DNA of 64,000 bases. It comes from Terrimicrobiaceae bacterium (GTDB lineage: Bacteria > Verrucomicrobiota > Verrucomicrobiia > Chthoniobacterales > JAATET01). The notes below the pieces were generated by a model. It was not told the origin of the DNA and ran no database searches. It worked only from the letters and a program-made list of their open reading frames with translations. The stretch lies in the NCBI GenBank assembly GCA_028713285.1, contig JAQTOP010000008.1, positions 1,572 through 65,571 on the forward strand. The letters are read 5' to 3'. How positions within the stretch are numbered: position 1 is the stretch's first letter; each line of letters starts with the position of its first letter. The position numbers and the translations under genes are program-made. Below, piece by piece: positions 8,567 through 32,929 of the stretch.

Positions 8567-9408
8567 GTGCGGCCCATCCGGAGTATTCGACGCTTCACGA
8601 AACGAAGCATCCGCTCCGCCCAAACAAACGGAGCGGCAACGGCATGAATCGACGCGCCCACCAGACGTCCCGGTCGCGACAGAATCGTGAAATGTGCCGC
8701 CGTGAGCTGCAATGCGCCGGGAAGGAAAAGGCGAATCCGCCGGCTGGCATTCACCCAGCGCTCCAGTTCCGCCATGTCGGGCCCGCGTCCGTGAATGATG
8801 CGCACGGTGCAGCGGCCAACCGCCGCCGGCATGACGGTGCGCAGGTTGTATTCCGGCGTGAGCACAAACATCGACACCGTCGAGCGCCAGAGGGCCTCGC
8901 GAAAGGCGGGCTGGTCGCTGTCCAGTCTTCCCGTTTTCCGAACCTCCTCTTCGTAGATGCGCTGCCATCTCGAGAGCAGGCTGTCGATTGAAGCTGTTTT
9001 TCGATACGCGATGACGCCGGTGTTCAACTCGCAGAAGCTCGCCGGCGCGACGAAGGGCCGGTCGTGCCGATACGGCGCATGGGCGACGGCGATTTCGACC
9101 CGGTCGAGCAGGTCGAACAAATCGTCGATCGGAGCGCAGACGCGCGTATCGGTGTCGAGAAAGACCGTGCGCTCGAAAGGCGTCTCACGCATCGGTACGA
9201 TCTTGTCCATGAACGAATGCCGAGGATTTTCGAGCGGGCGCACGTCCGCAAACAGCGAGGCGGAGAGTCCGCCTTGATCGGTATAAACGACGATCGGCGC
9301 GTCGGGCATGTGCCGCTTGAGCGATTCCGCGGACTCGATCATCTCAGCCGTGTGCCGCGCGCCCGTCGCCACATAGAGGAAGCCCCGGCTCGATTGCGAA
9401 GCCGTCAT
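8563..9408 (-). CDS. Putative GT-A fold nucleotide-diphospho-sugar transferase (GT8-like, DTD motif)
   Basis: FLYVATGARHTAEMIESAESLKRH...VFLDTDTRVCAPIDDLF. ATG at 9408 in an ATGA overlap. Confidence 0.5.
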   Translation of the reverse strand: MTASQSSRGFLYVATGARHTAEMIESAESLKRHMPDAPIVVYTDQGGLSASLFADVRPLENPRHSFMDKIVPMRETPFERTVFLDTDTRVCAPIDDLFDLLDRVEIAVAHAPYRHDRPFVAPASFCELNTGVIAYRKTASIDSLLSRWQRIYEEEVRKTGRLDSDQPAFREALWRSTVSMFVLTPEYNLRTVMPAAVGRCTVRIIHGRGPDMAELERWVNASRRIRLFLPGALQLTAAHFTILSRPGRLVGASIHAVAAPFVWAERMLRFVKRRILRMGRT

Positions 9409-10046
9409 TTCCACGTCAGGTCGATGATGGCATCGAGCTTCTCGCTCGCGACGCGCGCGCGCAGCGCATCCGTTTCGGCCTTCAGTTCCGGGATGCGATG
9501 ATCGTGGGTCTCGACGAAGAGATGCTCGATTCGCGAGATCGCGCCGGAGTCGATGAGGCGATTCACAACGGCGCATTCGACACCTTCGATGTCCATTTTC
9601 ACAACCTTGACGGGCGAATCGAGCGCGAGAACAAATTCCGCCAGATCGACCAGTTCGACCTGCGCGAAGGTGCCGGTATCCACGTTGGATTTGAAATCCA
9701 GCAGGCTGGAGCCGGTGGACCAGAACACCGGATCCTCCGGCGCATTCACGTGCATGAACAGAGGGGCGGTCCCGGCCTGGGGCGCGACGCCCTTGGGAAT
9801 GCAAACGACATGGGGCCGCTTCGCGAATCGCGCCGCAAGCCGGGCGAAGGCATTCGGATTCGGCTCGAACGCATGGACCGTCGCGCCCCGGCGGGAGAGG
9901 ATGTCCGTGATGTCGCCGACGTTCGCGCCGCAGTCCACCGCGACATCGCCGGGCCCAAGCGGAATGCGGGACAGCGCGCGGATCGTGTCCTTCGTGGGAT
10001 CGAGCATCGCCTGGATGCGATGGGCGATATGGCGGATCGGGTTCAT
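9405..10046 (-). CDS. FkbM-family SAM-dependent methyltransferase
   Basis: VAVDCGANVGDITDILSRRGATVHAFEPNPNAF ... VVKMDIEGVECAVV is the typical FkbM pattern. ATG at 10046 in an ATGA overlap; the alternative ATG at 10079 is less likely. Confidence 0.75.
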   Translation of the reverse strand: MNPIRHIAHRIQAMLDPTKDTIRALSRIPLGPGDVAVDCGANVGDITDILSRRGATVHAFEPNPNAFARLAARFAKRPHVVCIPKGVAPQAGTAPLFMHVNAPEDPVFWSTGSSLLDFKSNVDTGTFAQVELVDLAEFVLALDSPVKVVKMDIEGVECAVVNRLIDSGAISRIEHLFVETHDHRIPELKAETDALRARVASEKLDAIIDLTWK

Positions 10047-10900
10047 CTGGCGGGCGGAGTCTGAAACCATTTCGGCCATCCCTGCACCATCACCGGCGTG
10101 GAACCGAAGGCGCGCCGCAGGGCTTCGTCGGTGATTCTTTCTGCCACCCGGGAATCCAGCCGGCTCACCGCGCTGCGAATGCGATAGGAAAGAAAATTCC
10201 GGTCGAATACGCCGTTGTGGCGGCGGCCGATTTCCGCAATTTCGCGCATGCGCTTCCAGCCGCCGGTCGAAGTCTTCGTGTCGTCGTAGTAGCGAATCTC
10301 GGCGAGCGTCTCGTTGATGGCGATGACCTCGCATTTTGCGGCGAGGCGAATGAGGAGGTCCCAATCCATCGCGTAGTGCAGATCTTCGTCGAGCCCGCCG
10401 ACTTCCAGATAAAGGTCGCGGCGAAAGAACATCGCAGGCTGCACCACGCGGTAGGCGGTCCTGAGATGCCGGCGATTGAAGGGCCGGAAGGGCACCGTGT
10501 AAATCTCGCGCCCGTCTCGCGCGACCTTCGCCCCACGCCCGAATACGACGCCGGCATTCGGATTCGCAAGGAAAGCCTCTCCGACCGCGCGCAGGGCGCC
10601 GGGGCGAAACCGATCGTCGGAGTTCAGCCAGCAGGCGATCTCGCCGGTGGCCAGGCGCACGCCCTTGTTGATGCCGTCGCTCTGGCCGCGATCCGCCTCG
10701 CGCAGGATGCGCATGGGCAGGCGCTGTGCGTAGCGGGCGAGAATGTCCGGCGTCGCGTCGGTGGAGAGGGCATCGACGACGATGTGTTCGAGATTCGGAT
10801 ACGCCTGCGCCTCGATGCTGAGCAGCGTCTCCTCGATGAACTCCGCCTGATTGCGGGTCGGAGTGATGACCGAAATTTTCGGCGGCACAGAAAGAATCAC
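10043..10900 (-). CDS. Glycosyltransferase family 2
   Basis: ISVITPTRNQAEFIEETLLSIEAQAYPNLEHIVVDALSTDATPDIL...DRGQSDGINKG...WLNSDD. GTG at 10900 in a GTGA overlap. Confidence 0.85.
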   Translation of the reverse strand: MILSVPPKISVITPTRNQAEFIEETLLSIEAQAYPNLEHIVVDALSTDATPDILARYAQRLPMRILREADRGQSDGINKGVRLATGEIACWLNSDDRFRPGALRAVGEAFLANPNAGVVFGRGAKVARDGREIYTVPFRPFNRRHLRTAYRVVQPAMFFRRDLYLEVGGLDEDLHYAMDWDLLIRLAAKCEVIAINETLAEIRYYDDTKTSTGGWKRMREIAEIGRRHNGVFDRNFLSYRIRSAVSRLDSRVAERITDEALRRAFGSTPVMVQGWPKWFQTPPAR

Positions 10901-12894
10901 GCGGCCGCTGCGGCCGTCGGAAAGGGACGCAGTTTGGGAATGTGCTCGTGACGGGGAACGTGTGAGCGCGACTTCATGCTGAGGTTGCTGAAATGCACGG
11001 CCCCCGCCGCCTCCCACCCCGGACGTCCATACTCGGCGCACCCCTGCGACTGCTCGAACATCCAGGTATTCTTCGTGAGGATCATCATGTCGGAAACGTG
11101 CGGCTTGCCCTGCAGGCGGTCGTCGGATGCGACGGAGTAGGCCGCAAAAAATCGGGCCACGCGCTCATACTCCGCCGCCGTCCCGCTGACGAGGCAGGGC
11201 ACGCTGCGCTCGTAAAGCGCCATCTTTCCCACCGGACGCGGACGGAAGCCGTAGTTCACCACGTCGTAATCGCACATGAATCCGCCGCCCGCCTGGGCGA
11301 CCGCGAGCCAGCGCACGTAGCAATAGTAGTCGAGCTTTTTGCGATTGATGCTGGGCAGGGCGCGATAGGCGAGAAGCATGCGGGCGACTTCCTCATCGAC
11401 AGCCACAGACGATTCGTCGAGCACAACGGCTTCCCAGCCGTTCGCAGTCCAGCTTTCCCTCCACAGATCGACGAGCGCGGCCTCATGCTCGGGAATTTTG
11501 CCATGGATAGGCGCGCAGAATGTGTAAACGACCGGGCGCTCGTCCGCGGGCCTCGAACCGGAATCCGAAAAATCGCGCCGCGCGAGCCCGGGAACGTGGG
11601 AAGTGGTGATGTTGCGAAAAATGTGGCCGGCCTGTTCACCCTCCTGCATGAGCAACTCGAGGGTCTCGCAGTGCTGGTCGTAATAATCCGTGTAGCTGAT
11701 TCGGAAAAATCCGGGATGGGACTCCTTCGCGGCGTCCATTTTATCGACGATCTGCGATGGCGCGTGGTGGCTCCAGAAATATGCCTGGGCCTTGTCGGAG
11801 CGTCCATCGCAGCCCCCGATGCAAACCTCGCGAGCCAGGGTGGAGGCCACTGGCAGCATGAGCATCGTGAGGATATTGCCCGTTTGATTGACCTCATAAT
11901 CCGACAGGAGGTCGAAGTTGAAATGGCCGAGCTTATTGATGGGCACTCCGAAAATGCGCTTCATCAGGCTGGCCGGGAAATGCGCTCGATAGTAGGGGTA
12001 ATGCGTGATCGGCACGACCGCGTAGAGCGGGTGGCGCTGCATCGCATCGGCGAGGTTGCGTCGAAACTCGGCCGCATAGCCGGAGCAGCCGGCGTGGAAG
12101 ACCGGATCGCCGCAACACACGATGGATGGCCGGATTTTCTCCATCAGCCGCTCGTTCCGCACGAGGCTGTTCGAGACGACGCGCACGCCCTGAAGCAGCT
12201 CCATCTCCGCGATCTCCTCGAGACACGGGCCGGTGCCAAAAACATAGGCGCGCTGGCCGCCGCCGAGCGCCGCGGCCATCTCCGCGAATTTCTCCCGGCA
12301 TTCGGCGACCACCGACGAGCGGGACGAGCCGAGCAGCCGGGGCACGTCGAGCCAGGTCGAGGCTTCGCGGGAATACGTCTGACGATCCACGTTGAAGAAT
12401 GTGCGCCGGCCCCGCCGAAAAACGCCGTAGGACGACAGGCGCGCCGGCGGATCCCACAGCTTCGAATCCCACACGAGCACGATGTCCGCGTCCGCCACCA
12501 GGCTGCGGATATCATCGAGGGTCACGCTCTCGCGAAACTCGAGCAGGTCGCGGATTTGCCCCCGGCAGCGGGCGACTTCTTCGTCCATGTAGGCGGGCGA
12601 TCCGTCCTGCGCGCCGACTCCCGGCGCAACCGGGAAGACCACTTTTTTGACCTTGTCGAACACCGGACTGAGATACCAGCTCGCACGGTAAACGAGGTCC
12701 GCCAGCACGGCGGCATCGGGGATCACGGGCAGGAACGTCACCTTGACGGTTCTCTTGCCGCCCAGGGCCGCGATCGCCGGGCCCATCACGCCGCGGCGCG
12801 GCGGAAACGCGATCAGCCGCTCCGCGAGGGAGATGAGACGCGTGTATTTCGGAAGGAAGTCTCGGGTTCGCACGGAATGGTTCTCGGAATTCAA
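10897..12894 (-). CDS. Bimodular transferase: a DUF115/MptE-like (sialyltransferase-like) module plus a C-terminal DXD module of Caps_synth/GT32-like type
   Basis: Module 1 (about aa 200-440) contains FGTGPCL, VVSNS, YAAEFRRNL, NILTMLMLPVASTLAREVCIGGCDGR and HPGFFRISYTDYY. Module 2 contains WLAVAQAGGGFMCDYDVVNYGF. The track start is TTG 12894; GTG 12789 or ATG 12786 are alternatives. Confidence 0.6.
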   Translation of the reverse strand: MNSENHSVRTRDFLPKYTRLISLAERLIAFPPRRGVMGPAIAALGGKRTVKVTFLPVIPDAAVLADLVYRASWYLSPVFDKVKKVVFPVAPGVGAQDGSPAYMDEEVARCRGQIRDLLEFRESVTLDDIRSLVADADIVLVWDSKLWDPPARLSSYGVFRRGRRTFFNVDRQTYSREASTWLDVPRLLGSSRSSVVAECREKFAEMAAALGGGQRAYVFGTGPCLEEIAEMELLQGVRVVSNSLVRNERLMEKIRPSIVCCGDPVFHAGCSGYAAEFRRNLADAMQRHPLYAVVPITHYPYYRAHFPASLMKRIFGVPINKLGHFNFDLLSDYEVNQTGNILTMLMLPVASTLAREVCIGGCDGRSDKAQAYFWSHHAPSQIVDKMDAAKESHPGFFRISYTDYYDQHCETLELLMQEGEQAGHIFRNITTSHVPGLARRDFSDSGSRPADERPVVYTFCAPIHGKIPEHEAALVDLWRESWTANGWEAVVLDESSVAVDEEVARMLLAYRALPSINRKKLDYYCYVRWLAVAQAGGGFMCDYDVVNYGFRPRPVGKMALYERSVPCLVSGTAAEYERVARFFAAYSVASDDRLQGKPHVSDMMILTKNTWMFEQSQGCAEYGRPGWEAAGAVHFSNLSMKSRSHVPRHEHIPKLRPFPTAAAAA

Positions 12895-12984
12895 AGGCGG
12901 GCCTCCTCATGCATGACACGGATGAGCGGTCCGATCAAAGGCTTCCCGTGGCACGATTTGGGCTGGCAGAGACTTTTCGGCTCT

Positions 12985-15348
12985 TCACGGCTCGACGGCA
13001 TGGTATTCCTTAAGCCCGGGCGGTGCAAAGGGCGTGAATGCCCCGGCGCCCATCTGCCTCCCGTTCGCATCCGCCACCTCGATGCGAAGTTGCAGCTTTT
13101 CCGCCGGCGTACCGGCAATCGGGAATTCCCTCCCAGCCGAGGACGACCAGTCCGCCGTCGCATCCGCCTTGCCCGGCTCGATCACCGCGTAGCGGAAACA
13201 AACCGCGCCTTCGAGTCCCGCCGCGCCAAGCACCAGGGGAGAAATGCGGAGCGTGCGCGCCGCCGGGTTGGTTTCGTCGACGGACGCCTTGAAAACAAGA
13301 TAGCGCGACCGCGCCCGGGGCATTCGCATGCCGAAGGAGGGCGCATCGCCGAAAACCAATTCCGGACCGTAAGAGCAAAGGATGGTATCGAGATAGACGA
13401 GCCCGCGACCGGGCGGAACCGCGACTTTCACGGGCAGAAAGCCATCGAAAGCAGGGTTCGCCTCAATGGCGGTCACCACGGGACCGATCGCGGATATCGA
13501 GTTGCTCTTCAAATGATAAGCGACCAATGGCGCGGCTTTCATGATCTCGTAGTAGGGAACGGCCCAGTGCGCAGCGACCAGAGTGACCCGCTCCAATCCA
13601 GCCAGCGCCTTCCCGAGGCCAAGGCGCGGCGACGACGAGTCGATGGGTTTGCCCGCCACGATGGCCCGGACGACCTTCGAAAGCGAGCGGTCGTAACCGA
13701 ACAGAAGAATGTTCCGGCAAAGCGCCAGATGCCCGACCGCCACCACGCCCGCCAGCGCCCAAATACTCCACGTCCCCGCGCGAGACCTGCCCGGACGCAG
13801 ACCGGCGGCGATGAACGAGCCGCATATGATTACCGGATAGGCGAAATACACGCCGACCGTATCGAAGTATTTCATCGTCGCGCCGTAGGTCACCCACCAG
13901 ACGAGAAGCGTGATGGCAAGAGCTGCCGCGAACCAATCCCGTGGCGCCCGCGCCGCCGCGAGCACGACGCCGCATGCCACGAAGAGCCATGGCAGCAGCC
14001 CCGCCCATTCCGTGTTTTCGAAATGCAAACCCGCCATCGGGTTCGTCACTCCCCGGAAGCGATAGGTGACGTAGGTAAAGGCCGGCGACTGGTCGACACT
14101 CCGGAAGACCTGCGCGTTCCACCAAGCATTCCATTCGTCGATGGGCCGCTGACGCACCGCCGCTTTCGGCGAATCCTCGAAGGTCGGGATCGCGCTGAGA
14201 AAAAGTTGAGCCGTCAGCAACGACAGCGTCTGCTCCGCCACTCGGATTGAAAATGGCGAGTTCCGCGCCTCGTCGCCGCTGTAGGCGAACTTCGGGCTCG
14301 AGAGGCGGTTGTAAATCAGGAAGGGCGTCGACAATGCGACGATCACCACCAGGGCCACCGCCAGATCGCGCAATCGCGCAGGATTCAACGCATAGCTGCG
14401 GACCGCCGGATGCCGCGCCGCCGCGATCAGGAGCCAGACGCCGAGCAGCGGCAGCACCGGCCAGAAAAAATAGAAATGCAGCTTCGATCCGAGTCCGCAG
14501 CCGAGCGCCAGAGCGGCGGTCGAGAGATCGAGGCGTGATCCCTCGCGAAGATAGCGCAGGCCGAAATAAATTCCCGTGAGGACTCCCGCGCCGGCGATGA
14601 TTTCGTCGTTCGTCGAGGTCGCCTCGACAAAAACGATCGGCGCGAAGGCGATAAGAAATGCGACAAATGCCGCGAGGTGCCGCCCGCAGCCCATCCACCG
14701 CACCATCTGGAAGGTCGTGATCGCGACAACGGTCCACGCCGTGACGGAAGGCAGGTTGAAAACGACCGGCGCCACGCCGAACAGCGCGAAGGGCAGGCAG
14801 ACCAGCGATACATTGAACGGATAAAAGACGACGCGCGGATCGACGCTTTCGGCGAAGTGCCGCAGATTGCCCTGGCCCAGATACCACCACACGCGCGGCA
14901 GCCGATACATGAGCGTGTCGGGATTCACCGGCTCGATCGTGAGCGCCACCAGCAGGTTCCACGCGAAGCCCAGGCAAAGAAAGGTCACCGACGCCGCGAA
15001 AAGCGCGCGCGCCCAGGGAGAATGCGCCTCTTCCGCCGGCGGAACCCGCAGCAATCCTTCGACGTCCTCGACCCTGCGCCGGCGCGAAAGCCAGCCGATG
15101 CAAAAAGCCGCGCCGATGCTGAATGCGACGAGGAGCGCGGCATATGCGATGTGGTTGCGGAGTTCGCCGGCCGGCGAAAGGACGTTCGCCACCAGCACGA
15201 GGAGCGCCCAGGCCCAGGCCAGCGCGGCGGGCACGGCATCCGGCCAGCGCAGGCCGGTCCTCCCGAGCGCGAGCAGCAATGGCAGCAGCACCGCCGTGGC
15301 GAGCAGGACCGGCATCATCGGCGGGAAATCGTTCGACGCGGCGCCCAC
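12985..15348 (-). CDS. Large polytopic membrane protein, GT-C-type glycosyltransferase-like, with a C-terminal soluble domain
   Basis: At least 10 hydrophobic helices over about 520 aa, followed by a hydrophilic C-terminal domain of roughly 250 aa. This architecture matches the ArnT/PMT/GtrC class. GTG at 15348 or ATGATG at 15318 (MMPVLLATAVLL). Confidence 0.6.
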   Translation of the reverse strand: MGAASNDFPPMMPVLLATAVLLPLLLALGRTGLRWPDAVPAALAWAWALLVLVANVLSPAGELRNHIAYAALLVAFSIGAAFCIGWLSRRRRVEDVEGLLRVPPAEEAHSPWARALFAASVTFLCLGFAWNLLVALTIEPVNPDTLMYRLPRVWWYLGQGNLRHFAESVDPRVVFYPFNVSLVCLPFALFGVAPVVFNLPSVTAWTVVAITTFQMVRWMGCGRHLAAFVAFLIAFAPIVFVEATSTNDEIIAGAGVLTGIYFGLRYLREGSRLDLSTAALALGCGLGSKLHFYFFWPVLPLLGVWLLIAAARHPAVRSYALNPARLRDLAVALVVIVALSTPFLIYNRLSSPKFAYSGDEARNSPFSIRVAEQTLSLLTAQLFLSAIPTFEDSPKAAVRQRPIDEWNAWWNAQVFRSVDQSPAFTYVTYRFRGVTNPMAGLHFENTEWAGLLPWLFVACGVVLAAARAPRDWFAAALAITLLVWWVTYGATMKYFDTVGVYFAYPVIICGSFIAAGLRPGRSRAGTWSIWALAGVVAVGHLALCRNILLFGYDRSLSKVVRAIVAGKPIDSSSPRLGLGKALAGLERVTLVAAHWAVPYYEIMKAAPLVAYHLKSNSISAIGPVVTAIEANPAFDGFLPVKVAVPPGRGLVYLDTILCSYGPELVFGDAPSFGMRMPRARSRYLVFKASVDETNPAARTLRISPLVLGAAGLEGAVCFRYAVIEPGKADATADWSSSAGREFPIAGTPAEKLQLRIEVADANGRQMGAGAFTPFAPPGLKEYHAVEP

Positions 15349-15379
15349 TCGCGCATAGCGTTCTGACTTTCGGATCTGG

Positions 15380-16573
15380 ATGCTTTCACGGAATCTCTAC
15401 CTGGATGTGCTGCGCGGAATCGCGGTGATTCTCGTCCTGTTCCGCCACGCGACGCTGCCCCCGATGCCGGATGGCTGGGAAAAATCGCTGCTCGACTCGC
15501 TCAACGGCGGCGGCTGGTGCGGGGTGGATTTGTTTTTCGTACTGAGCGGCTTCCTCGTCTCGATGCTGCTTTTCAAGGAATACCAGCGCAGCAATACGGT
15601 GAGGCTCGGGCGTTTCTTCATGCGGCGCGGATGGAAAATCTATCCGATGTTCTGGCTGTTCATTCTCGCGACGGTGCTCGTGCTGACGTTCCATCCCGGC
15701 CAGCGCAAGCCGGAGACGCCGAAACTGATGGCCGAGTTGCTGTTCTATCAAAATTACACCCCGGGCCTCTGGGCGCATACCTGGAGCCTCGCGGTGGAGG
15801 AGCACTTCTATCTGCTGGTCGGGATTGGACTCACGGCGCTTCTCGCCTTTCCGCTGCGAGGACGGCGCGGCCTGCATGCGGTGCCGTGGATTTGCCTGGG
15901 CGGAATGGCGCTGCTCACCGCAGTCCGCGTCATGCACAGCCTGTGGACGCCTTACGACCACTACACGCATTTGTTTCCCACCCATCTGCGCATCGACTCG
16001 CTGCTGATGGGCGTCCTGATTTCGTATCTCTGGTGCTTTCATCGCGAGGCATTTCTCGCGCATGTCACGCGCTGGCGCTGGCCGCTGGCAGTGATGGGCC
16101 TGCTACTCTTCGCCCATCCGTTTGTCTTTCTCGAACCGTGGCGCACCTGGTGGCAGAGTTCGCTGGGATTGACGGCGCTGTATCTCGGCGCGGGCATGAT
16201 CGTGGCGGTGACGCTCTCGCTGCCGGACGTGCGCCAGCCGCTCATTCGCTGGCCCCTGCTCTTCGTCGCCATGGCCGGCGTGTCGTCCTACGCGATCTAT
16301 CTCTGGCACATGCCGTGGAAGGTCTGGGGCCCCACCTATCTCCAAAAGGCGATGGGCATTCGCCGGCCCGTCCAGCTTGGCCCCGAGGACGCATTCTGGT
16401 TTTTCATTTTTGGAAGCCTGCTGCTGGGCATCCTGCTCACGCTGCTCGTCGAGCAGCCCCTGCTGCTGCTGCGCAACAAACTCTTCCCTTCGATTCCCCG
16501 GCAAAAGGACGCGGCCCCCTCACCGCCGACGCGCGAGGATCAAATACTGACCGCCGAGGGGAACCCAACCTAG
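15380..16573 (+). CDS. Acyltransferase family 3 (membrane O-acyltransferase)
   Basis: YLDVLRGIAVILVLFRHA ... GVDLFFVLSGFL ... WSLAVEEHFY are classic acyltransferase_3 motifs. This is the only plus-strand gene in the glycan locus. Confidence 0.85.
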   Translation: MLSRNLYLDVLRGIAVILVLFRHATLPPMPDGWEKSLLDSLNGGGWCGVDLFFVLSGFLVSMLLFKEYQRSNTVRLGRFFMRRGWKIYPMFWLFILATVLVLTFHPGQRKPETPKLMAELLFYQNYTPGLWAHTWSLAVEEHFYLLVGIGLTALLAFPLRGRRGLHAVPWICLGGMALLTAVRVMHSLWTPYDHYTHLFPTHLRIDSLLMGVLISYLWCFHREAFLAHVTRWRWPLAVMGLLLFAHPFVFLEPWRTWWQSSLGLTALYLGAGMIVAVTLSLPDVRQPLIRWPLLFVAMAGVSSYAIYLWHMPWKVWGPTYLQKAMGIRRPVQLGPEDAFWFFIFGSLLLGILLTLLVEQPLLLLRNKLFPSIPRQKDAAPSPPTREDQILTAEGNPT

Positions 16574-17215
16574 CGCCGCCTCGATGGGCCGCAGGCTGCG
16601 CAACGCCGCCGGAAAGTAGAAGTGAAATGACGTTCGCTCCACCTCGAGGCCGCTGTCGCAAAGCAGACGCGCGGCTGCCGGGGGCGGGATCGGCACCGCA
16701 TCACGGTCGAACTCGCAGCGGCTCATCACCCAGCGCGTGCCGGGATTCCACGGGTTGTTCTCCCAAAATGCGAAGCGGCCGCCGGGGCCCAGAGCATCCC
16801 GCACGAGAGCGACGGATGCGGCGCGCTCCGCCGGCGCGATGTGATGAAAGACGCCATTGCAATAGGCGAGGTCGAAGCCCGGCAGCCCGGGCACTTTCTC
16901 GATCGGAACGAAGCGGGCGGCGAATTCATTCCATTGCGCGGCGGCCACCTCCAGAGAGGCGAGCGACGGATCGGTGCCGACCAATTCGGCAAGGGGGAGG
17001 TGCTCGAATAGAAACGGCGTGGCCGAGCCCGTGCCGCAGCCGAAGTCGAGCATGCGGGCGGGTGCGCAGCCCAGCCCGGCCAGGACGCGCGCCGTGATGA
17101 CCGCACGACGGCGCGCGAAGTAATTCTTGTCTTCGCCCGTGACGCTCAACGCGCTTTCCAGCGCTTCGTCGTAGTTCGCGGCGTAGGCGTCGAAGTTGAC
17201 CTTTTCCGGCGTCAT
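16520..17215 (-). CDS. Class I SAM-dependent methyltransferase
   Basis: ARMLDFGCGTGSATPFL (motif I) ... FDLAYCNGVFHHI ... LGPGGRFAFWE. ATG at 17215 in an ATGA overlap with the stop at 17212. The 3-prime end overlaps the convergent acyltransferase by 54 nt. Confidence 0.8.
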   Translation of the reverse strand: MTPEKVNFDAYAANYDEALESALSVTGEDKNYFARRRAVITARVLAGLGCAPARMLDFGCGTGSATPFLFEHLPLAELVGTDPSLASLEVAAAQWNEFAARFVPIEKVPGLPGFDLAYCNGVFHHIAPAERAASVALVRDALGPGGRFAFWENNPWNPGTRWVMSRCEFDRDAVPIPPPAAARLLCDSGLEVERTSFHFYFPAALRSLRPIEAALGWVPLGGQYLILARRR

Positions 17216-18399
17216 CTTCGGCGAAGCCCCAGCACGTCGAGAAAGAAGCTGCCGAAGAGCGTCTGCACCCCGAGCGCGGTGAGCGTCGAGCCGGGAATCA
17301 CAATGCGCATCGTGAAGGCATAGCTCAGCGCCCCGAAGTCGGACAGAATCCACAGGACGACGGCCCAGCCAAGCAGTGCAAATCCGGTGACCATCAGCAG
17401 GGCGCCCGCGACGAGGCCGCGCTCGAGCGGCAGGATGTTCCGCAATTGCCCGATGCGCGCGTCCTCGGGCAGGATGCCTTCGGTGATCGCGAAAACTTTC
17501 GTGAAGATGGCAAACCACACCGCCTGATAGCCGCAGAGCATGCTCAGACTGGCAAACAGGAGCGTGTGCGCGTCGAAGGTGGCGGGGCCGATCCGCGCGC
17601 CGGGAAGGGCCAGGGCGTATCCCGCAAACCCGAGCAGAATCAGCGCAGCTCCCGGCAAAAGGAACAACCAGCGCGGACTGAAAAGGAGGAAGAATCGCAG
17701 CGTGCGCCAGCCGTCGCGGAAGGTTCGCAAATGCGGCGTCCTGCTTTTGCGGCCGTCGGGATGCAGGGTGATCGGCACCTCCGCAAACCTGACCTTCCGC
17801 AGGCTCGCCTTGATCACCATTTCCGTGGCGAATTCCATGCCCGTGCAGCGCAGATCCAGCCGGCGGTAGAGATCTTTCGTGAAGCCGCGCAGGCCGCAAT
17901 AGACATCGTGAATCGGCGCATCAAACCATACGCGCGCCATCTTCGAGAACATCGGATTGCCCCACCAGTAGTGCAGGAACGGCATCGCGCCCGGCAGCAC
18001 TCTGCCGCCGCCCGCGCGCAGGCGGCAGCCCTGCACGAGCTCCGCTCCGGCGCGCAGTTCCCGCACGAATCCCGAAAGGTCGCCGAAGTCGTAGCTGTCA
18101 TCCGCGTCGCCCATGATGATCAAATTTCCCCGAGCCGACTCGATGCCGCCCATCAAGGCGTTGCCATAGCCCCTGGCCTCGACCCGCTCGACGCGCGCGC
18201 CTTCGCCCTCGGCGAGTTCGATGGATCCGTCCGTGCTGCCATTGTCGGCGAGAATCACCTCGCCCTTCACGCCGTTGTCGCGCAGCCAGGTCACCGCCTT
18301 TTTCACGCAAATGCCCACCGTATCCGACTCGTTCAGACACGGGATGATGATCGACAGCTCGACGTCCGAGGCTTCGGCGGCAGGCGGGGGATCCGGCAT
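17212..18399 (-). CDS. GT2 polyprenyl-phosphate glycosyltransferase (GtrB/ArnC/DPM1-like) with C-terminal transmembrane helices
   Basis: LSIIIPCLNESDTVGICVKKA...ILADNGSTDGS...IIMGDADDSYDF, then about four hydrophobic helices (FFLLFSPRWLFLLPGAALILLGFAGYAL ...). ATG at 18399 (MPDPPPAA); the upstream 262 aa of the track ORF are low-complexity. Confidence 0.8.
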   Translation of the reverse strand: MPDPPPAAEASDVELSIIIPCLNESDTVGICVKKAVTWLRDNGVKGEVILADNGSTDGSIELAEGEGARVERVEARGYGNALMGGIESARGNLIIMGDADDSYDFGDLSGFVRELRAGAELVQGCRLRAGGGRVLPGAMPFLHYWWGNPMFSKMARVWFDAPIHDVYCGLRGFTKDLYRRLDLRCTGMEFATEMVIKASLRKVRFAEVPITLHPDGRKSRTPHLRTFRDGWRTLRFFLLFSPRWLFLLPGAALILLGFAGYALALPGARIGPATFDAHTLLFASLSMLCGYQAVWFAIFTKVFAITEGILPEDARIGQLRNILPLERGLVAGALLMVTGFALLGWAVVLWILSDFGALSYAFTMRIVIPGSTLTALGVQTLFGSFFLDVLGLRRR

Positions 18400-18413
18400 G
18401 GTTTTGTCGCAAT

Positions 18414-19199
18414 TCACGCCGGGATGACCTCCTTCGACATGCGCTTCCGATAGACAGCGATTTTCCCTTCGGCACCGACGGAGTCGAATTCCGCAAAACT
18501 CCCGATGCCCCTGTCGCCGGCGGACAAGCCCAGGACCACAAGCGTGCCGCCGTCCTTCACGAGATGAAAAGCGTCGGCGGCGGGCAGCCCCGCGGCATCG
18601 ACAATCAGCGCATCCACCCGCGCGGCCCGACCGATGGACTCGACCTCGACCCGCTCGAACCAAATGGGCGCCAGCGCTCGCACCAGTGCTGCGAAATCTT
18701 TCGAAATATCCCCCGCTGCAAAAACGTGAACCGGCGCGCCCCTCCACCGCAGCAGCGCGATGACTCCGGCGAACAGGTCGGGCGTTTCCAGCCGGATGGG
18801 GCCAATGCCGTCCGCCTCGGCCCGCGCGATGGCGCGCGTCAATGCCTCGATCTCCCCGCGCCCGAGCGCCACGCCCAGCGCACCGGCCCATTCCCGCAGG
18901 CTCGCGAGCTGGAATTCCCCTGCGAAGCGCGAATTCATCCCCGCGGCGAACGGCGCGAGCCCGCCATGGCGCCGCGCCAGATTCTCCTGGATGCGAATCA
19001 GCCCGCGGTGCAATCGCTGCAGTTGCGGCATCGTCGTGTCGCGCTCCAGACCGAGCTTGATGGAAAGGATCGTCCGCTCGGCCTGCAACAGGCGGCGCTC
19101 GATGTCGTCGAATTGCCGGGCCAGCCGGCGGCGGGTGGCAAGCAGCAGCGCGACCGTCAAAATCGCGCTGAGGAGGACGGAACAAATTACGGCGGGCAT
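18414..19199 (-). CDS. Bitopic membrane protein: N-terminal TM helix, coiled-coil segment, C-terminal globular domain of unknown function
   Basis: MPAVICSVLLSAILTVALLLATRRRLARQFDDIERRLLQAERTILSIK..., with ATG at 19199. I recognise no family. Confidence 0.45.
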   Translation of the reverse strand: MPAVICSVLLSAILTVALLLATRRRLARQFDDIERRLLQAERTILSIKLGLERDTTMPQLQRLHRGLIRIQENLARRHGGLAPFAAGMNSRFAGEFQLASLREWAGALGVALGRGEIEALTRAIARAEADGIGPIRLETPDLFAGVIALLRWRGAPVHVFAAGDISKDFAALVRALAPIWFERVEVESIGRAARVDALIVDAAGLPAADAFHLVKDGGTLVVLGLSAGDRGIGSFAEFDSVGAEGKIAVYRKRMSKEVIPA

Positions 19200-19224
19200 A
19201 AGATCGTCTGGGAATGCAAGGCTG

Positions 19225-19518
19225 TTACGAATCGCGGGATTCCTCCGCGCGTTTGCCGGCTTCCAGCGCGGAAAGCCTGAGGTCGAGGCGGAGACCGACC
19301 GCAGCAACTCCGTCCACCATCGCCGCGAGATTGCGCACCTCGTCGGCGTTCGCTTTGCCGGCAAGGGACGGCTCGATTTGCTGAAGCTTCCCGCTCCACA
19401 TCTTCTCGAGTTCCCGAAGCGAACGCTCGGTGCTCCTGCGCAGCTTCGCGAGCCTGACCGCCAGCGCAATCGTCGCGGCGCTCGAGACGAGTGCGATCAA
19501 TGAGAGCGCGTAAATCAT
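19225..19518 (-). CDS. Small bitopic membrane protein with a coiled-coil tail
   Basis: MIYALSLIALVSSAATIALAVRLAKLRRSTERSLRELEKMWSGKLQQ.... Start chosen at ATG 19518, downstream of the upstream stop at 19541. The N-terminal architecture parallels the next gene. Confidence 0.4.
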   Translation of the reverse strand: MIYALSLIALVSSAATIALAVRLAKLRRSTERSLRELEKMWSGKLQQIEPSLAGKANADEVRNLAAMVDGVAAVGLRLDLRLSALEAGKRAEESRDS

Positions 19519-19540
19519 GGCATGTGTTTCGGCGGCGGCA

Positions 19541-22500
19541 TCATTTCCAGACAATCAATCGTCCCCGCCGCGACGGGGAGAATATTTCCCGAAATTCCGC
19601 GACACGATCGCGAAAAAATCCTGAGACCTGATGCCGCACGTTCAACCGCATGAGGGCCGTCCCCCAGGCGCGCAGCCATTGTTGAATTCGATTCGCGACT
19701 CCGCCCTGTCCCGCTCCGACGTTCGCAACCTCCGCCGGGTGAACATTGAGGGCGGCAACATACGCTTTCCGCAGGTGGACCACTGCGTCGCCCGCGCCGC
19801 GCGGGACCTTGATCACCGACGGATCGAGCAGCAACAGCGTGCCGGGGCGTCCGCGGGGGATCGCCGCGGGATCGGCGATTTCCCGCAACAGGCGATAATC
19901 CGGAAGCGGACTCGAGCCCAGTGGCGCATACCGCTCACTCCACACGGCTCGAATGCCGGGATCGATCTTCATGCAGCCGGCCAGCGCCGCCGACCCGTCG
20001 CCATCGCCTTCGCAAAAGACAAGCGTCGCCGCGGTGCGAATCGGATGGGGCAGCGGATCCACGCGGCAAAGGTCGGCGGCATTGCACAAAACGACGGCGA
20101 CGGCATTCTTCCCAAACCGCTGCGCGAGGGTGGAAACATTCCGTTGCGCGGCGGCGGGCGCCGGGCAGGAAATCACGTTCCATTCCCGGCTCAAAAATCG
20201 ATCGAGCCGGCGCCGCGCCACGTCGCCGACTGCGACGGCGACCGTCGCCGACGCCGCGTCGCGGAAAAATCGCGCGGCAACGTCGCAATCGTCGATGCGT
20301 CGGCGATGCAGCCGCGTATAGGGACCGAGCAGCGTTCGCCCTTCGGATTTGTCCCGGCGGACGCGATCCAGCCGAAAGACGGAGTCCTGGAAAATTCGGC
20401 GCGAACCCTCCACATCGAGTTCCGCGAGCGCCCTCTTGCGCGCGGCCAGCGCCCGTTCCCGAAAGATCGCCGGCTCCTGCGCGAGCCGTCGGAGTGCGTC
20501 GTCGAGGGCGTCCGGATCCGGCTGGGCGACAACAACCGCGGCACCCAGCTCACGGGCTCGTCGAACGGTCGCGATGGTGTCCGGCCCGATGACAATCAAA
20601 GGCGCACCCGAAGCGAGACACTCGGGCAATTTATTCGCCATCGAAAACTGCGTGTAGGCGCGGGTGCGGTCGTCGAAATTGTAGGCGATCAACACGGCGC
20701 CTGCGGACGAGAGCAGCCCCGGATAATCCGCCTGCTCGACAGACGGCAGCACCTCGACGCCGCGGAACTCGCGGAAGCGCGCCTGCGCGATCTTCAGCGC
20801 CGCGGGCAGGGCGTAGATCTCGAAGCGAATCGGCAGCTCCGCGCCCAGCTCGCCCACGGCCCGGGCGAGCATTTCCACGGCCGCCAGCGACATGTCCTCG
20901 GTGAGCCCTCCGCAATACCGGATGACAAGGGGTTCGCCCCGCTCGCGATAACGGTCAACGGGCGGCCAATCGGCGGGATCGATGCCGTTTGCGACGGGTG
21001 TGAAATCGAATCCGTAACGTTCGCGATAAGCCGCGCTCATCGCATCGGAAATGCTCAGCCGCGCGTCGGATCGCCGCAAAAGCTCGCGCAGCGTGGGATC
21101 GACACGGGCATGGAGCGCGGGATTCTCCAGCCGCAGACGTTCCGGCCAATCATCCATGATGTGGGTGATCACGGGCACGCCGAGCCGCTGGACGAGTTCC
21201 CATCCGAGTTCGACAAATTCCGGCGGGCTCTCGGTCGGGCGAAAATAGATCACCTGTGGATCGAAATCCCCGCACTCGCGGAGCACGTCCTCGCGGGTGA
21301 GTTTCGCCTCCTTGAACGCGGGATGCTCCGCCGGACTGTGCAGGCGGAAAAACGAGCCGTCCCGCGTGCTCAATGGCCGCACCTGAAGGATGCTCTCCGC
21401 CGGCCAGTTCCTGAACAGCGCCGACTTCAACTGCCCGGTCGCATTGCGGGCGCCGATCTCGGTGAAGTCGATCACGAGCATCCGGGGGAGATTCGCCGGA
21501 CGGCTTTGCAGGGCGGGGATGTGGGACGGCGTGACCGTGCCATATTCCCGACCCATCTTCTCGCCCTCGCCGATCAGCTCCTCGAGCTGCCGGCAATGGT
21601 CGAGATAGTAGTCGTTGTAATCGATCGCGAAAAATCCCGGATGCACACGGCGGATGTTCTCCATTTGATCATTGATCTGGGTGCGCTGGTTGTGACGCCA
21701 GAAATAGCCGTCCTCGTCCAGCGGACGCCCGTCGCAACCGAGCAGGCAAATCCTCCGCGCAAATGTGGAGGCCAGCGGAAGCATGAGGTAGGTGAGAATA
21801 TTCGCCGTGGTGAAAACGCGAAATTCATTGGAGAGGTCGAGATTGAAGCCGTTGGGCTTGTCGGACGGGATGCCGATCGTGCGCCCGCGCAGCTCGGGCA
21901 TCGCGTCGGTCAGCAAACCGTAATACCGCATCGGGACGATGATCGTGTAATCGTGCCGCGCGCAGGAGTCGCGCAGTTTCCGGCGGAATTCCGCCGCGTA
22001 TTTCGACGGGCCGAAATGGAATATCGGATCGGCGAAAACGAGAAGCCTCGGACGCACCCAGGCCATGAGTTCCTCGTCGAGAATCGCGCTGTTGCAGATA
22101 ATGGAAATCGCACCGTCGAAATTCGTTTCCTTGAACGCCGCGAGCGACGGACCCGTCGCCAGGCAGCAGGCCGTCCCCGCGCCGCCGCACTCCTCCACCA
22201 GCCGCGCGAACCGGCTCCGGCATTGCTCGATCTCCGCGTAGCGATCCGCGCGCAACTGGAAATTCAACTCGACCCAGTTTCCGAATTCCTGCCGGGAGCG
22301 AATCGGATCGCAGCGGAGAATTTTTTTCCGGTTCAGCGCTTCGATCCATTCGCCTTCGGAGAGCAAATCCCATTGCGGCGGATCTTCCGCAAGCACCACG
22401 AAATCGCTCCCGGCCAGATGCTCGATCACTGCCTCCGCCGAAGGCGCTGCGACGAACCGCACCCGCGGCCGCAACGCCGGAAAGTTCCCGGCGATGGCGG

Positions 22501-22720
22501 GATCCATCAGCTCCGGCACGCTCCACTCGACATCGGCGAGCGACGCATCAGAAATAAAAACAACGCATTCGCGGAACGAGGCGGTTCCGATGGCCCAGGC
22601 CATGCGGGCGAGCAGGTCGAGCAGCTCGCTCCCGCTGCGGATGAGCGGCAGCACCGTGAGGCGCGATGCGATCACGAGAAGGACAACGCCCTTTCCGGCG
22701 CGGGTGCGGACTTCAGCCAC
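19541..22720 (-). CDS. Giant multidomain transferase: N-terminal domain, DUF115/MptE-like module, GT4-like GT-B domain, and about 270 aa of unknown C-terminus
   Basis: ATGPSL, IICNS, YAAEFRRKL, NILTYLMLPLASTFARRICLLGCDGR and HPGFFAIDYNDYY are paralogous to 10897..12894. They are followed by VITHIMDDWPERL...ISDAMSAAYRERYG...MANKLPECLASGAPLIV (GT-B like). The start is uncertain: ATG 22720 overlaps the upstream gene by 49 nt. Confidence 0.7.
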   Translation of the reverse strand: MAEVRTRAGKGVVLLVIASRLTVLPLIRSGSELLDLLARMAWAIGTASFRECVVFISDASLADVEWSVPELMDPAIAGNFPALRPRVRFVAAPSAEAVIEHLAGSDFVVLAEDPPQWDLLSEGEWIEALNRKKILRCDPIRSRQEFGNWVELNFQLRADRYAEIEQCRSRFARLVEECGGAGTACCLATGPSLAAFKETNFDGAISIICNSAILDEELMAWVRPRLLVFADPIFHFGPSKYAAEFRRKLRDSCARHDYTIIVPMRYYGLLTDAMPELRGRTIGIPSDKPNGFNLDLSNEFRVFTTANILTYLMLPLASTFARRICLLGCDGRPLDEDGYFWRHNQRTQINDQMENIRRVHPGFFAIDYNDYYLDHCRQLEELIGEGEKMGREYGTVTPSHIPALQSRPANLPRMLVIDFTEIGARNATGQLKSALFRNWPAESILQVRPLSTRDGSFFRLHSPAEHPAFKEAKLTREDVLRECGDFDPQVIYFRPTESPPEFVELGWELVQRLGVPVITHIMDDWPERLRLENPALHARVDPTLRELLRRSDARLSISDAMSAAYRERYGFDFTPVANGIDPADWPPVDRYRERGEPLVIRYCGGLTEDMSLAAVEMLARAVGELGAELPIRFEIYALPAALKIAQARFREFRGVEVLPSVEQADYPGLLSSAGAVLIAYNFDDRTRAYTQFSMANKLPECLASGAPLIVIGPDTIATVRRARELGAAVVVAQPDPDALDDALRRLAQEPAIFRERALAARKRALAELDVEGSRRIFQDSVFRLDRVRRDKSEGRTLLGPYTRLHRRRIDDCDVAARFFRDAASATVAVAVGDVARRRLDRFLSREWNVISCPAPAAAQRNVSTLAQRFGKNAVAVVLCNAADLCRVDPLPHPIRTAATLVFCEGDGDGSAALAGCMKIDPGIRAVWSERYAPLGSSPLPDYRLLREIADPAAIPRGRPGTLLLLDPSVIKVPRGAGDAVVHLRKAYVAALNVHPAEVANVGAGQGGVANRIQQWLRAWGTALMRLNVRHQVSGFFRDRVAEFREIFSPSRRGRLIVWK

Positions 22721-29394: not shown

Positions 29395-30267
29395 TCAGGC
29401 GCTCCAGCGTTCGATGACCAGCGGCATTGCGGCCCGAACCAGAACCAGACCGATGAGCAGCATCACGAGCATGAGCGCCATCACGCCAAAAAATTGGGGC
29501 AACACCGTCAAGGACTCGCCCGCCACCAATTGCCGGGTCGTCATGACCAGATAGCTCATCGGATTCAGCCGCGCGACCAGTGCGTAAACACCGCCGGGAG
29601 GAAGGTGCTTCGCCGCGAACACGGTCGGCGTCACGACGAGCCACCCCTTCTCGATGATGGGAATGGCGAGCGCGATATCCCGGTAAAGCAGTCCGATGGG
29701 CATGACCAAAAGTCCGACCGCCGTTCCGAATGCCGCCACGCCGATCAGGGCCGGTATCCCCATCAGCGTGGTCGGGGTAAACGGGAGACGAAACCAGAGG
29801 AAGGCGAAGAAGATCAGCACGATCTGCAAGGCCATGGTGATGCCAAGTTTCACCATACTGGAAAGAATGATCGCCTCGGGCGGCACGACCACCTTGGTCA
29901 GCACGCTGCGGTAGCTGCCGACGACCTGGAGCGGCCCGCTGACCGCCGTGGCGAAAACCTGCCAGATGGACACCCCGATCAGGATGTAGGCGCCGTTGGG
30001 AATCTTCGCCGTGCCGAAATTGACGAGGTCATTTTGTTGCGCGACCGTGAGGCCGACGGCGATCACGATCGGCGGCGCCAGAATCCAGAACAGCCCGAGC
30101 AGCGACTGCCGATACTGCGAACGCAAATCGCGGACCGCGAGAATGATCGCGAGCTGGCGGCTGCCGACAATGTCGCGCCACATCATTCGCAGCAGCTTCG
30201 ACGGGCGCAGCAGCGTGCTCTCCGCGCCGTATTCGTGGGTCTGCAGATGTCCGCTTTCCAGGCTCAT
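29395..30267 (-). CDS. wzm: ABC-2 type polysaccharide export permease (Wzm/TagG/KpsM class)
   Basis: ILAVRDLRSQYRQSLLGLFWILAPPI is the hallmark N-terminal ABC-2 motif. About 6 TM helices, 290 aa. Confidence 0.85.
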   Translation of the reverse strand: MSLESGHLQTHEYGAESTLLRPSKLLRMMWRDIVGSRQLAIILAVRDLRSQYRQSLLGLFWILAPPIVIAVGLTVAQQNDLVNFGTAKIPNGAYILIGVSIWQVFATAVSGPLQVVGSYRSVLTKVVVPPEAIILSSMVKLGITMALQIVLIFFAFLWFRLPFTPTTLMGIPALIGVAAFGTAVGLLVMPIGLLYRDIALAIPIIEKGWLVVTPTVFAAKHLPPGGVYALVARLNPMSYLVMTTRQLVAGESLTVLPQFFGVMALMLVMLLIGLVLVRAAMPLVIERWSA

Positions 30268-32663: not shown

Positions 32664-32695
32664 GTCCGCTGGAATGAAGTCACCATCGATTCCGA

Positions 32696-32929
32696 TTATC
32701 CGGCCGTCGTCTTGCTTCCGATCACATCGATAAACTGCCGGAGACTTAGAGTTTCCAGCGTCTCCTCATCGCTAAATCTGATCCCAAACTCCTCCTCCAG
32801 GGCCAGGATCAGATTCATTTGCCTCAGGGAATCCCACTCTTCAATCGTTTCCGAGCTTGAGTCGTCTCCAATTTGCGATTCCTCGATTCCGAAGACCGAG
32901 GCCATCACCCGCTTAATTCTGGTTTCCAT
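32696..32929 (-). CDS. Acyl carrier protein
   Basis: 77 aa with IEEWDSLRQMNLILALEEEFGI. The DSL serine is in the usual helix-2 context of phosphopantetheine attachment. Confidence 0.8.
   Translation of the reverse strand: METRIKRVMASVFGIEESQIGDDSSSETIEEWDSLRQMNLILALEEEFGIRFSDEETLETLSLRQFIDVIGSKTTAG

Follow-up and report, generated by a model that had tools for sequence, protein, structure and literature searches.

What do two large bacterial proteins do that share a module matched by no named family and carry different glycosyltransferase (GT) domains behind it? The question is posed by a 64,000-nucleotide (64-kb) stretch of DNA, called the window throughout, from a Terrimicrobiaceae bacterium of the Chthoniobacterales (Verrucomicrobiota; GenBank assembly GCA_028713285.1, contig JAQTOP010000008.1, positions 1,572 to 65,571), in which a surface-glycan locus codes for two such proteins that we call A and B. 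An initial annotation, based on the letters of the sequence, had noticed the shared segment, likened it to DUF115/MptE-like proteins and sialyltransferases, and suggested that it adds an acidic or otherwise unusual sugar. Our analysis leads us to propose, at a probability of roughly 0.6, that A and B are multidomain glycosyltransferases of a Wzm/Wzt surface-glycan locus and that the module transfers a 2-keto-acid sugar activated with cytidine monophosphate (CMP).

Two copies of a 400-residue module

The two proteins and their parts occupy the following positions of the window (aa, amino acids; ORF, open reading frame; the basis of each assignment is given in brackets):

10897..12894, minus strand: protein A, a 665-aa ORF with the shared module followed by a GT-A domain (ORF and translation)
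11545..12744, minus strand: module copy A, residues 51-450 of A (BLASTP against B)
11575-12297, minus strand: DUF115/GT42-like sub-domain of A, roughly residues 200-440
10900..11553, minus strand: C-terminal GT-A (DxD) domain of A, residues ~448-665 (AlphaFold2 and Foldseek)
19541..22720, minus strand: protein B, a 1059-aa ORF with the module, a GT4 domain and a decayed methyltransferase-like tail (ORF and translation)
21440..22663, minus strand: module copy B, residues 20-427 of B (BLASTP against A, AlphaFold2, Foldseek, hhalign)
20381..21286, minus strand: GT4-type GT-B domain of B, residues ~479-780 (Pfam)
19544..20380, minus strand: C-terminal tail of B, residues 781-1059, an apparent FkbM relic plus an orphan remainder
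20099-20350, minus strand: the FkbM relic in the tail of B, residues ~791-874 (hhalign)

Both minus-strand ORFs lie where the initial annotation had placed them. The sequence blocks that it quoted all recur in the translations (GTGPCL in A and ATGPSL in B, VVSNS and IICNS, YAAEFRRNL and YAAEFRRKL, NILT...GCDGR, YFWSHH and YFWRHN, HPGFF...HC, EGEQAG and EGEKMG, and FMCDYDVV of A), and its nucleotide ranges for the shared blocks add up. It had aligned these blocks by eye and confined the shared segment to about 240 aa. A BLASTP comparison of A and B with composition-based statistics, the pairwise alignment that it had suggested, is significant and not compositional (34% identity and 50% positives over 413 columns, E = 6e-72), so the paralogy stands. 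The extent does not: homology spans residues 51-450 of A and 20-427 of B, which makes the module about 400 aa long, with two sub-domains, and lets it begin about 150 residues earlier. With either module as a query, tblastn finds these two copies within the window and no more.

A skeptic might hold that the likeness is compositional or a chance product of two high-GC ORFs, or that one ORF is not real, given that the guanine-plus-cytosine (GC) content of the window is mostly 62-67% (lower in an island at 32-38 kb) and that it holds many spurious long ORFs. That view is refuted by the E-value under composition-based statistics, by the coding-type GC content at third codon positions (GC3) of both ORFs (0.80 in A, 0.77 in B), by orthologs at 70-80% identity in other genomes, by the ~1,300 homologous clusters in public data and by the very confident AlphaFold2 models. 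Among the orthologs, full-length A has one at 80% identity in the Chthoniobacterales metagenome-assembled genome (MAG) L033, and full-length B one at 70% in the Chthoniobacterales MAG L038.

Both copies also retain what the family as a whole retains. Fifty-one positions are conserved in 85% or more of the family members. A keeps 49 of these (among them TGP 221-223, N242, D263, H267, G361, D363 and R365) and B all 51, and the GCDGR motif is among the positions kept by both. The invariant or near-invariant polar residues are, in the numbering of B, N210, D231, H235, D330, R332, H343 and H360, next to the glycine-rich TGP loop. Retention of 49 to 51 of the 51 conserved positions points to purifying selection on both copies, and both look functional.

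The two copies are not sisters in a neighbor-joining tree, where B falls inside a clade of module-GT4-FkbM proteins and A sits on a separate long branch; the tree is without support values. As each also has its own Chthoniobacterales ortholog, a recent duplication within the locus was rejected, and A and B appear to be ancient paralogs or separate acquisitions, each kept in other Chthoniobacterales.

The listed start codons of both genes may need revision. At a GTGA junction at window positions 22672-22675 the stop codon of an upstream NKWYS capsule-synthesis gene overlaps a GTG that is also the position where B orthologs and family members begin. The GTG at 22675 is hence the likeliest start of B, probably giving a protein of 1044 aa and making the listed ORF of 1059 aa 15 codons too long. 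The same junction suggests that the NKWYS gene and B are translationally coupled. For A, the true start may be the ATG at 12786.

An unnamed sister family in the DUF115/GT42 superfamily

Scans of A and B with Pfam and NCBIfam gave no match to the module at E<=1, and comparison of the module with all sequences of the PDB (phmmer and profile hmmsearch, E<=10) returned only noise, namely a globin, a de novo designed protein and a P450, with no chain of GT42, GT99 or GT107 among the matches. The family around it is large. A word-indexed search of 5.8 billion proteins recovered 101 module relatives, none of which has a Pfam match on the module and all of which are named "hypothetical protein" at their source. 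An exhaustive hidden Markov model (HMM) search of 1.84 billion representatives yielded 1,294 clusters (counted at 50% identity) at E<=1e-3, 971 of them at E<=1e-30, and a scan of GTDB species genomes found 132 relatives in the Proteobacteria, Cyanobacteria, Actinomycetota, Chloroflexota, Verrucomicrobiota, Bacteroidota, Nitrospirota and other phyla. The closest relatives come from Chthoniobacterales MAGs. A typical member is 800-2,500 aa long with the module at residues ~2-400, the module being internal or double in some, and stand-alone proteins of ~400 aa make up about a quarter of the 150 best-scoring representatives. Two module copies were seen in single polypeptides of 1,500-2,600 aa in P0156, P0157, P0168 and P0213. 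Literature searches under DUF115/MptE-like, polysaccharide, cytidylyltransferase, hexulosonic acid and GT42 retrieved no description of this family, nor of the cytidylyltransferase gene cassette described below.

The fold gives a first indication of what the module is. An AlphaFold2 model of residues 20-412 of B, built from a 60-sequence alignment, is highly confident (predicted local distance difference test, pLDDT, 94.5; predicted template modeling score, pTM, 0.93) and consists of two alpha/beta sub-domains, of which the C-terminal one is larger than the N-terminal one. In a Foldseek search of the PDB, the check that the initial annotation had proposed, the GT42 sialyltransferases Cst-II and Cst-I of Campylobacter jejuni (PDB 1RO7, 2P2V) are the sole specific matches (probability 0.96-1.00, E from 8e-4). 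The match is of moderate quality and limited to the C-terminal sub-domain (target-normalized template modeling (TM) score 0.43-0.48, ~250 aligned columns); the remaining matches are generic Rossmann proteins at a probability of <=0.5.

Profile comparisons lead to the same superfamily through PF01973, the Pfam family that corresponds to DUF115. Twelve of 60 family members give weak PF01973 matches (best E 0.0018, profile positions 15-80), the best scoring 18.5 bits against a gathering score of 34.6 bits; A and B have no match to this model at E<=1. For a more sensitive comparison we aligned 24 small (~260 aa) PF01973 proteins from the gene cassettes in which module genes are found, two of which (from L080 and L081) bear an unmarked precomputed PF01973 match. 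The module profile matches this alignment in hhalign at 93.2% probability (E 2.9e-7) over 200 columns, with module residues 148-381 covered, and the small-PF01973 profile in turn matches Cst-II/Cst-I by sequence (E 3e-6 against the PDB; hhalign 95.7%, with a Cst-II sequence checked against 1RO7). A glycine-rich loop and a following asparagine (GTGPCL and N242 in A, ATGPSL and N210 in B) align with NGPSL and the Asn of the PF01973 proteins and Cst-II; within the family TGP is 95-98% conserved and the Asn invariant. As in Cst-I and Cst-II, the first strand of the module leads into an xGPS-type loop, the second is followed by an Asn and the central one by a G-x-D.

The C-terminal ~240 aa of the module are accordingly a divergent member of the DUF115 (PF01973)/GT42 superfamily, and the N-terminal ~150 aa a family-specific addition. 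The initial assignment to DUF115/GT42 holds at the superfamily level, through the structural match, the profile-profile alignment and the weak PF01973 matches; formal membership in PF01973 or GT42 does not, and the family is best described as an unnamed sister family inside the known superfamily that lies outside PF01973 and GT42 by their own sequence criteria. Unlike Cst-I and Cst-II, the module has no significant direct sequence similarity to GT42, bears the extra N-terminal sub-domain and has motifs of its own (DPxFHFGPSxYAAxFR, YFWxHN, HPxFFxxDYxDYY); moreover, it comes from Wzm/Wzt polysaccharide loci as a fusion with other GT domains, and the window has no neuABC genes. From the DUF115/PF01973/Maf proteins, to which it is linked by profile-profile homology although A and B miss the PF01973 model, it differs in its N-terminal sub-domain and its fusion partners. 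The acceptors also differ, being flagellin for Maf and presumably lipid-linked glycans for the module. In many genomes the module family and a separate small PF01973 protein are encoded in the same cassette, which argues that the two are not interchangeable.

[quoted passage not shown] Their representative WbbB of Raoultella terrigena resembles the module proteins in architecture, with an N-terminal ulosonic-acid-type transferase joined to polymerizing GTs in an ABC (ATP-binding cassette) transporter-dependent O-antigen system (PMC9587256), and it would share the CMP-sugar donor class if the module uses the donor that we propose. The parallel does not extend to fold or sequence: WbbB (8cse) ranks 50th in the Foldseek list (probability 0.11, TM 0.19) and shows no sequence similarity. 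With no GT99 or GT107 (KpsC) match among the PDB sequences either, a relationship of the module to these two families was ruled out.

Conserved gene neighborhoods point to a CMP-activated keto-acid sugar

Which donor such a transferase might use was approached through gene neighborhoods. In 81 related loci, ORFs within 10 kb on either side of the module gene were called and clustered, and cluster representatives were annotated with Pfam and NCBIfam. The neighbor that recurs most often is a ~230-aa PF02348 cytidylyltransferase: 33 of the 81 loci have it, as do 27 of the 58 that are 15 kb or longer. It does not qualify as an equivalog of either KdsB or PseF (65.7 bits, cut-off 205.7). A 2-hydroxyacid dehydrogenase resembling phosphoglycerate dehydrogenase (PGDH) almost always pairs with it, and the third component of the cassette is either a short-chain dehydrogenase/reductase (SDR) with a metallo-beta-lactamase (MBL)-fold or SMP30 lactonase-type gene, or an HpcH/HpaI aldolase with a haloacid dehalogenase (HAD) phosphatase.

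These components occur in two recurrent configurations. In the first, seen with conserved synteny across phyla in L013 (Marinibactrum), L034, L035, L052, L065, L074, L080 (Oceanicoccus) and others, a typical gene order starts with an MBL-fold or SMP30/gluconolactonase-type protein, followed by GT2, cytidylyltransferase, 2-hydroxyacid dehydrogenase, in some cases Wzm and Wzt, then the module protein, SDR, small PF01973 protein and GT2; the MBL-fold and SMP30 genes are interchangeable in one slot. In the second, seen in L015, L031, L060, L064, L069, L071 and L073 (Hufsiella), genes for the cytidylyltransferase, the HpcH/HpaI aldolase and the 2-hydroxyacid dehydrogenase stand beside a stand-alone module, with the HAD phosphatase in five of the seven. 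This configuration lacks the small PF01973 protein, which leaves the module as the sole DUF115-like candidate user of the CMP product.

A further association comes from a distant homolog of the module (28% identity; L082) on plasmid AZO_p6 of Azospirillum lipoferum 4B (NC_016588.1, 122477-123742), annotated as hypothetical, which adjoins neuB, neuC, an aminotransferase and a formyltransferase and so lies in a nonulosonic-acid cluster. A 222-aa hypothetical gene beside it is not a cytidylyltransferase. The same cluster also includes a CmcI methyltransferase, and a sialidase-family protein is encoded close by.

PF02348 enzymes activate 2-keto-acid sugars as CMP esters. Ulosonic acids are known in CMP-activated form only (bioRxiv 10.64898/2026.04.20.719630), and DUF115 Maf enzymes are reported to transfer pseudaminic acid (Pse), legionaminic acid (Leg), N-acetylneuraminic acid (Neu5Ac) and Kdo (bioRxiv 10.1101/2020.06.03.131540). 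Taken together with the cytidylyltransferase linkage, these two points make a CMP-(2-keto-acid sugar) transferase the best-supported predicted function of the family. The acidic or ulosonic donor that the initial annotation had suggested is thus strengthened by the cytidylyltransferase and by three sets of keto-acid-sugar supply genes in other genomes. The cassette itself may represent a CMP-activated keto-acid sugar pathway that has not been described before.

Fusion partners of the module in A and B

The two window proteins differ in what follows the module. Residues ~448-665 of A belong to a second unnamed family, composed of stand-alone proteins of ~210 aa (53 database matches, without Pfam), in which the motifs RW..A, DYD, SD and H are invariant (DYD in 37 sequences). 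The AlphaFold2 model of this domain reaches a pLDDT of 95.9, and its top Foldseek matches are all of the GT-A fold (PBCV-1 A64R, BoGT6a, LARGE1, LtpM, SetA and Och1, probability 0.92-1.00), which bears out, at fold level, the "DXD module" around FMCDYDVV that had been read from the sequence of A. As neither Pfam nor the PDB sequences yielded a match to the domain, its CAZy family is left unassigned. A similar fusion of module and GT-A domain is encoded in L042.

In B, residues 479-780 match PF13524 above its threshold (29.6 bits, cut-off 25), in agreement with the GT4-like GT-B domain assigned initially, with further Pfam matches to PF13439 (27.5 bits, cut-off 28.5) and PF13692 (21.9 bits) and a weak NCBIfam match to the WcaI family. 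In relatives, the module is commonly followed by GT4 (or GT2) and an FkbM methyltransferase, to which a TylF-type methyltransferase or a sulfotransferase may be added. The enzymes of L002 (Cyanobium), L052 (Parvibaculaceae) and L018 (Solirubrobacterales) show the same module-then-GT4 order as B; B is 37-45% identical to such enzymes, with the alignment reaching through GT4 in two (L018, L010), and in L018 a sulfotransferase domain is fused to the module-containing protein. The window lacks the cytidylyltransferase cassette by which these relatives are flanked.

The tail of B, ~270 aa that the initial annotation left unassigned, has no Pfam match at E<=10 and a single homolog among the 5.8 billion proteins, apart from the L038 ortholog. 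Over 81 columns, hhalign aligns its residues ~791-874 with the beginning of the FkbM region in module-GT4-FkbM relatives (93.9%, E 1.6e-7), and the S-adenosylmethionine (SAM)-binding motif DVGAHxG of that region reads AVGDVAR in B. Hence, the tail is most likely a decayed FkbM methyltransferase domain of which ~80 residues remain recognizable, the rest being an orphan; B would then differ from its relatives in having lost the methyltransferase and its SAM-binding motif, an apparent case of domain decay inside an otherwise conserved protein.

A model for A and B and its alternatives

In the model that we favor, a decorated (methylated, sulfated and acylated) polysaccharide would be built on undecaprenyl phosphate at the cytoplasmic face and would leave by the ABC-transporter-dependent route through Wzm/Wzt. 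The module would bind a CMP-activated 2-keto-acid (ulosonic-type) sugar, a donor class like that of Cst-I and Cst-II, and transfer it to the growing undecaprenyl-linked glycan. The fused domain, the GT-A DxD domain in A and the GT4 GT-B domain in B, would add a neutral sugar from a nucleoside diphosphate (NDP)-sugar. A and B would thus each be bifunctional, and the presence of two paralogs could provide two acceptor or linkage specificities.

Several observations weigh against this model. A and B fall below every Pfam, NCBIfam and PDB sequence threshold on the module. The direct hhalign comparison of the family with Cst-II is weak (probability 2%, E 0.022); it places G328/D330 of B on G152/D154 and H375 on His188 of Cst-II, which is only a lead, and H375 falls short of the 85% conservation that defines the 51 family positions. 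In the cassette configuration with the small PF01973 protein, this second DUF115 protein could be the actual user of the CMP donor. In the window, tblastn with the cassette proteins (cytidylyltransferase, 2-hydroxyacid dehydrogenase, SDR, small MptE-like protein) found none of them, Pfam and NCBIfam scans found no NeuB, Kds or other ulosonic-acid genes, in keeping with the initial remark that the window has no nonulosonic-acid or Kdo synthesis genes, and the 17-kb Chthoniobacterales locus L038 with the B ortholog likewise has no cassette genes. CMP-Kdo synthesis is a housekeeping function that is expected to be encoded elsewhere, which makes the absence of Kdo genes from the window weak evidence. 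The donor in the source organism is possibly encoded outside the window, or is a housekeeping CMP-sugar such as CMP-Kdo. Finally, PF01973 takes its name from a pyrophosphokinase, the archaeal 6-hydroxymethylpterin diphosphokinase, so the superfamily does not consist exclusively of glycosyltransferases.

This last point, with PF01973 being the module's sole, if weak, Pfam signal, leads to the main rival, in which the module is an MptE-like kinase, pyrophosphokinase or other phosphotransferase that acts on a glycan terminus, as the WbdD kinase does, or on a precursor. Terminal phosphorylation and methylation do serve as caps in ABC-dependent systems (WbdD, PMC3482155), and a kinase would accord with the failure to find CMP-sugar genes in the window. 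We nevertheless consider it improbable: the only solved structures specifically matched are CMP-sugar transferases, with no MptE structure among the Foldseek matches (though the PDB may hold none), and linkage to the cytidylyltransferase and keto-acid-sugar genes needs a transferase, for which the module is the sole DUF115-like candidate in the aldolase configuration. Far less probable still is a module without catalytic function, serving as a scaffold, in membrane or acceptor binding or in dimerization, with an old nucleotide-binding fold as a mere remnant. The extra N-terminal alpha/beta sub-domain, which has no assigned role, and the decayed tail of B, which illustrates that domains of such proteins can decay, would fit a scaffold; it is hard to square with the conservation of N210, D231, H235, D330, R332, H343 and H360 (B numbering) across ~1,300 clusters from many phyla, or with the stand-alone ~400-aa members that have no catalytic partner to scaffold.

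Two narrower proposals start from the transferase function itself. As a tentative refinement, the module might be a chain-terminating ulosonic-acid transferase, whose single WbbB-like cap would be recognized by the C-terminal domain of Wzt and set chain length, polymerization being left to the fused GT domains. The mostly N-terminal position of the module in 800-2,500 aa enzymes with GT4/GT2 and FkbM/TylF methyltransferase or sulfotransferase domains would suit such a role, for which the N-terminal terminating beta-Kdo domain of WbbB is an architectural precedent. Export by transporters that have a carbohydrate-binding domain depends on a modified terminus (PMC9445017). Moreover, a wzt gene lies near the module in 27 other loci, a Wzt with a Wzt_C domain adjoins it in L080, and the Wzt of the window bears a weak Wzt_C domain. 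Yet two modules per locus here, and double modules per polypeptide elsewhere, fit in-chain transfer or two linkages at least equally well; the stand-alone methyltransferases and sulfotransferases of the window could supply a cap, and the module's fold is unrelated to GT99. These considerations leave the cap possible rather than probable.

Somewhat more doubtful is the idea that the family is a dedicated transferase of a CMP-activated 2-ulosonic acid not described so far, neither Kdo nor a nonulosonic acid, whose residue is the cap read by Wzt. The sugar would arise from an aldose that an SDR converts to an aldonolactone, an MBL-fold or SMP30 lactonase to an aldonate, the 2-hydroxyacid dehydrogenase to a 2-keto-aldonate and a new PF02348 subfamily to the CMP-sugar, with the HpcH aldolase and HAD phosphatase as an alternative supply. 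The classes of the enzymes suggest this route, as does the exchange, within a single gene slot, of two lactonase-type folds that are unrelated. The residue, which fused FkbM/TylF domains would often methylate, would form a non-reducing cap for the carbohydrate-binding domains of Wzt, and the window paralogs would be a Verrucomicrobial derivative of the system. The broader model, transfer of a CMP-activated 2-keto-acid sugar by multidomain glycosyltransferases of a Wzm/Wzt locus, is the one that we carry forward.

The surface-glycan locus of the window

Both genes belong to one large surface-glycan locus that extends from position 640 to ~39,700, nearly all on the minus strand, as delineated by Pfam and NCBIfam matches in ORFs supported by GC3. 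The locus codes for six GT4 proteins (two of them weak matches) and four GT2 proteins, a 1005-aa protein having both domains, and for two sulfotransferases, six methyltransferases, an acyltransferase_3, the NKWYS capsule-synthesis protein and an NAD-dependent epimerase/dehydratase. Outside the locus, the window codes for housekeeping functions (NadE, BipA, AcrAB, the dcw cluster). GC content is ~0.62-0.67 throughout except in the 32-38 kb island (0.52-0.59). Among the genes of the locus are:

1797-2612 and 28656-29375: the two sulfotransferase genes (PF00685/PF13469)
10043..11041, minus strand: GT2 glycosyltransferase directly downstream of A (PF00535, E 7e-25)
12985-15348, minus strand: 787-aa protein between A and B
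15380-16573, plus strand: acyltransferase_3 between A and B (Pfam)
16520-17899, minus strand: methyltransferase between A and B (Pfam), 5' part probably over-extended
17212-19185, minus strand: GT2 between A and B (Pfam), 5' part probably over-extended
18414-19469, minus strand: 351-aa protein between A and B
29395..30267, minus strand: Wzm-like ABC-2 permease (NCBIfam galactan export permease Wzm/RfbD)
32913-34667: FkbH-domain/HAD-IIIC protein in the low-GC island (TIGR01686, 262 bits)
34695-35612 and 36431-37324: two methyltransferases in the low-GC island
35696-36364: hexapeptide acyltransferase in the low-GC island
37370..38767, minus strand: Wzt-type ABC transporter ATPase, 465 aa (PF00005; NCBIfam TagH and Wzt)

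The GT2 gene downstream of A belongs to a cluster of GT2 genes found alongside the module in 21 other loci, and is the only window gene in a cassette-associated cluster. The transporter assignments are of unequal strength, the match of the Wzm-like permease being sub-threshold (E 3.8e-13, 49.6 bits against a cut-off of 380). The C-terminal ~180 aa of Wzt (residues ~287-465; 37373-37909) match Wzt_C (PF14524) at E 0.0013 and 19.2 bits, with a cut-off of 30.4, and show no BLAST similarity to the other Wzt proteins collected from related loci; this extension may be a divergent cap-binding domain.

Between A and B, the ORFs at 16520-17899, 17212-19185 and 18414-19469 overlap one another in different frames, and the Pfam domains lie in the 3' parts, which makes it probable that the methyltransferase and GT2 ORFs are over-extended at their 5' ends, although a frameshift may also play a part. 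Four ORFs of the locus (12985-15348, 18414-19469, 5618-6553 and 8563-9804, of 787, 351, 311 and 413 aa) have no credible Pfam match (E<=10) and none in NCBIfam. GC3 is of coding type in the first three; the ORF at 8563-9804 failed the GC3 filter and could be spurious.

As to decoration of the glycan, the two sulfotransferase genes suggest that it is sulfated. The low-GC island (32000-37400) sits between the Wzm-like gene and wzt and looks like a horizontally acquired decoration module, whose product is possibly a glyceryl-type substituent.

Implications

Ulosonic-acid transferases, which act on sialic acids, Kdo, Pse and Leg, are few and confined to a handful of CAZy families, and they are wanted for glyco-engineering and as antimicrobial targets. 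In giant multidomain enzymes of ABC-transporter-dependent glycan pathways, the module described here comes first. Should it prove to be a CMP-keto-acid-sugar transferase, that donor class would gain a new GT family, and the linked cytidylyltransferase cassette would indicate a CMP-sugar not described so far. For the window and its relatives alike, a testable, domain-resolved prediction can replace the annotation "hypothetical protein".

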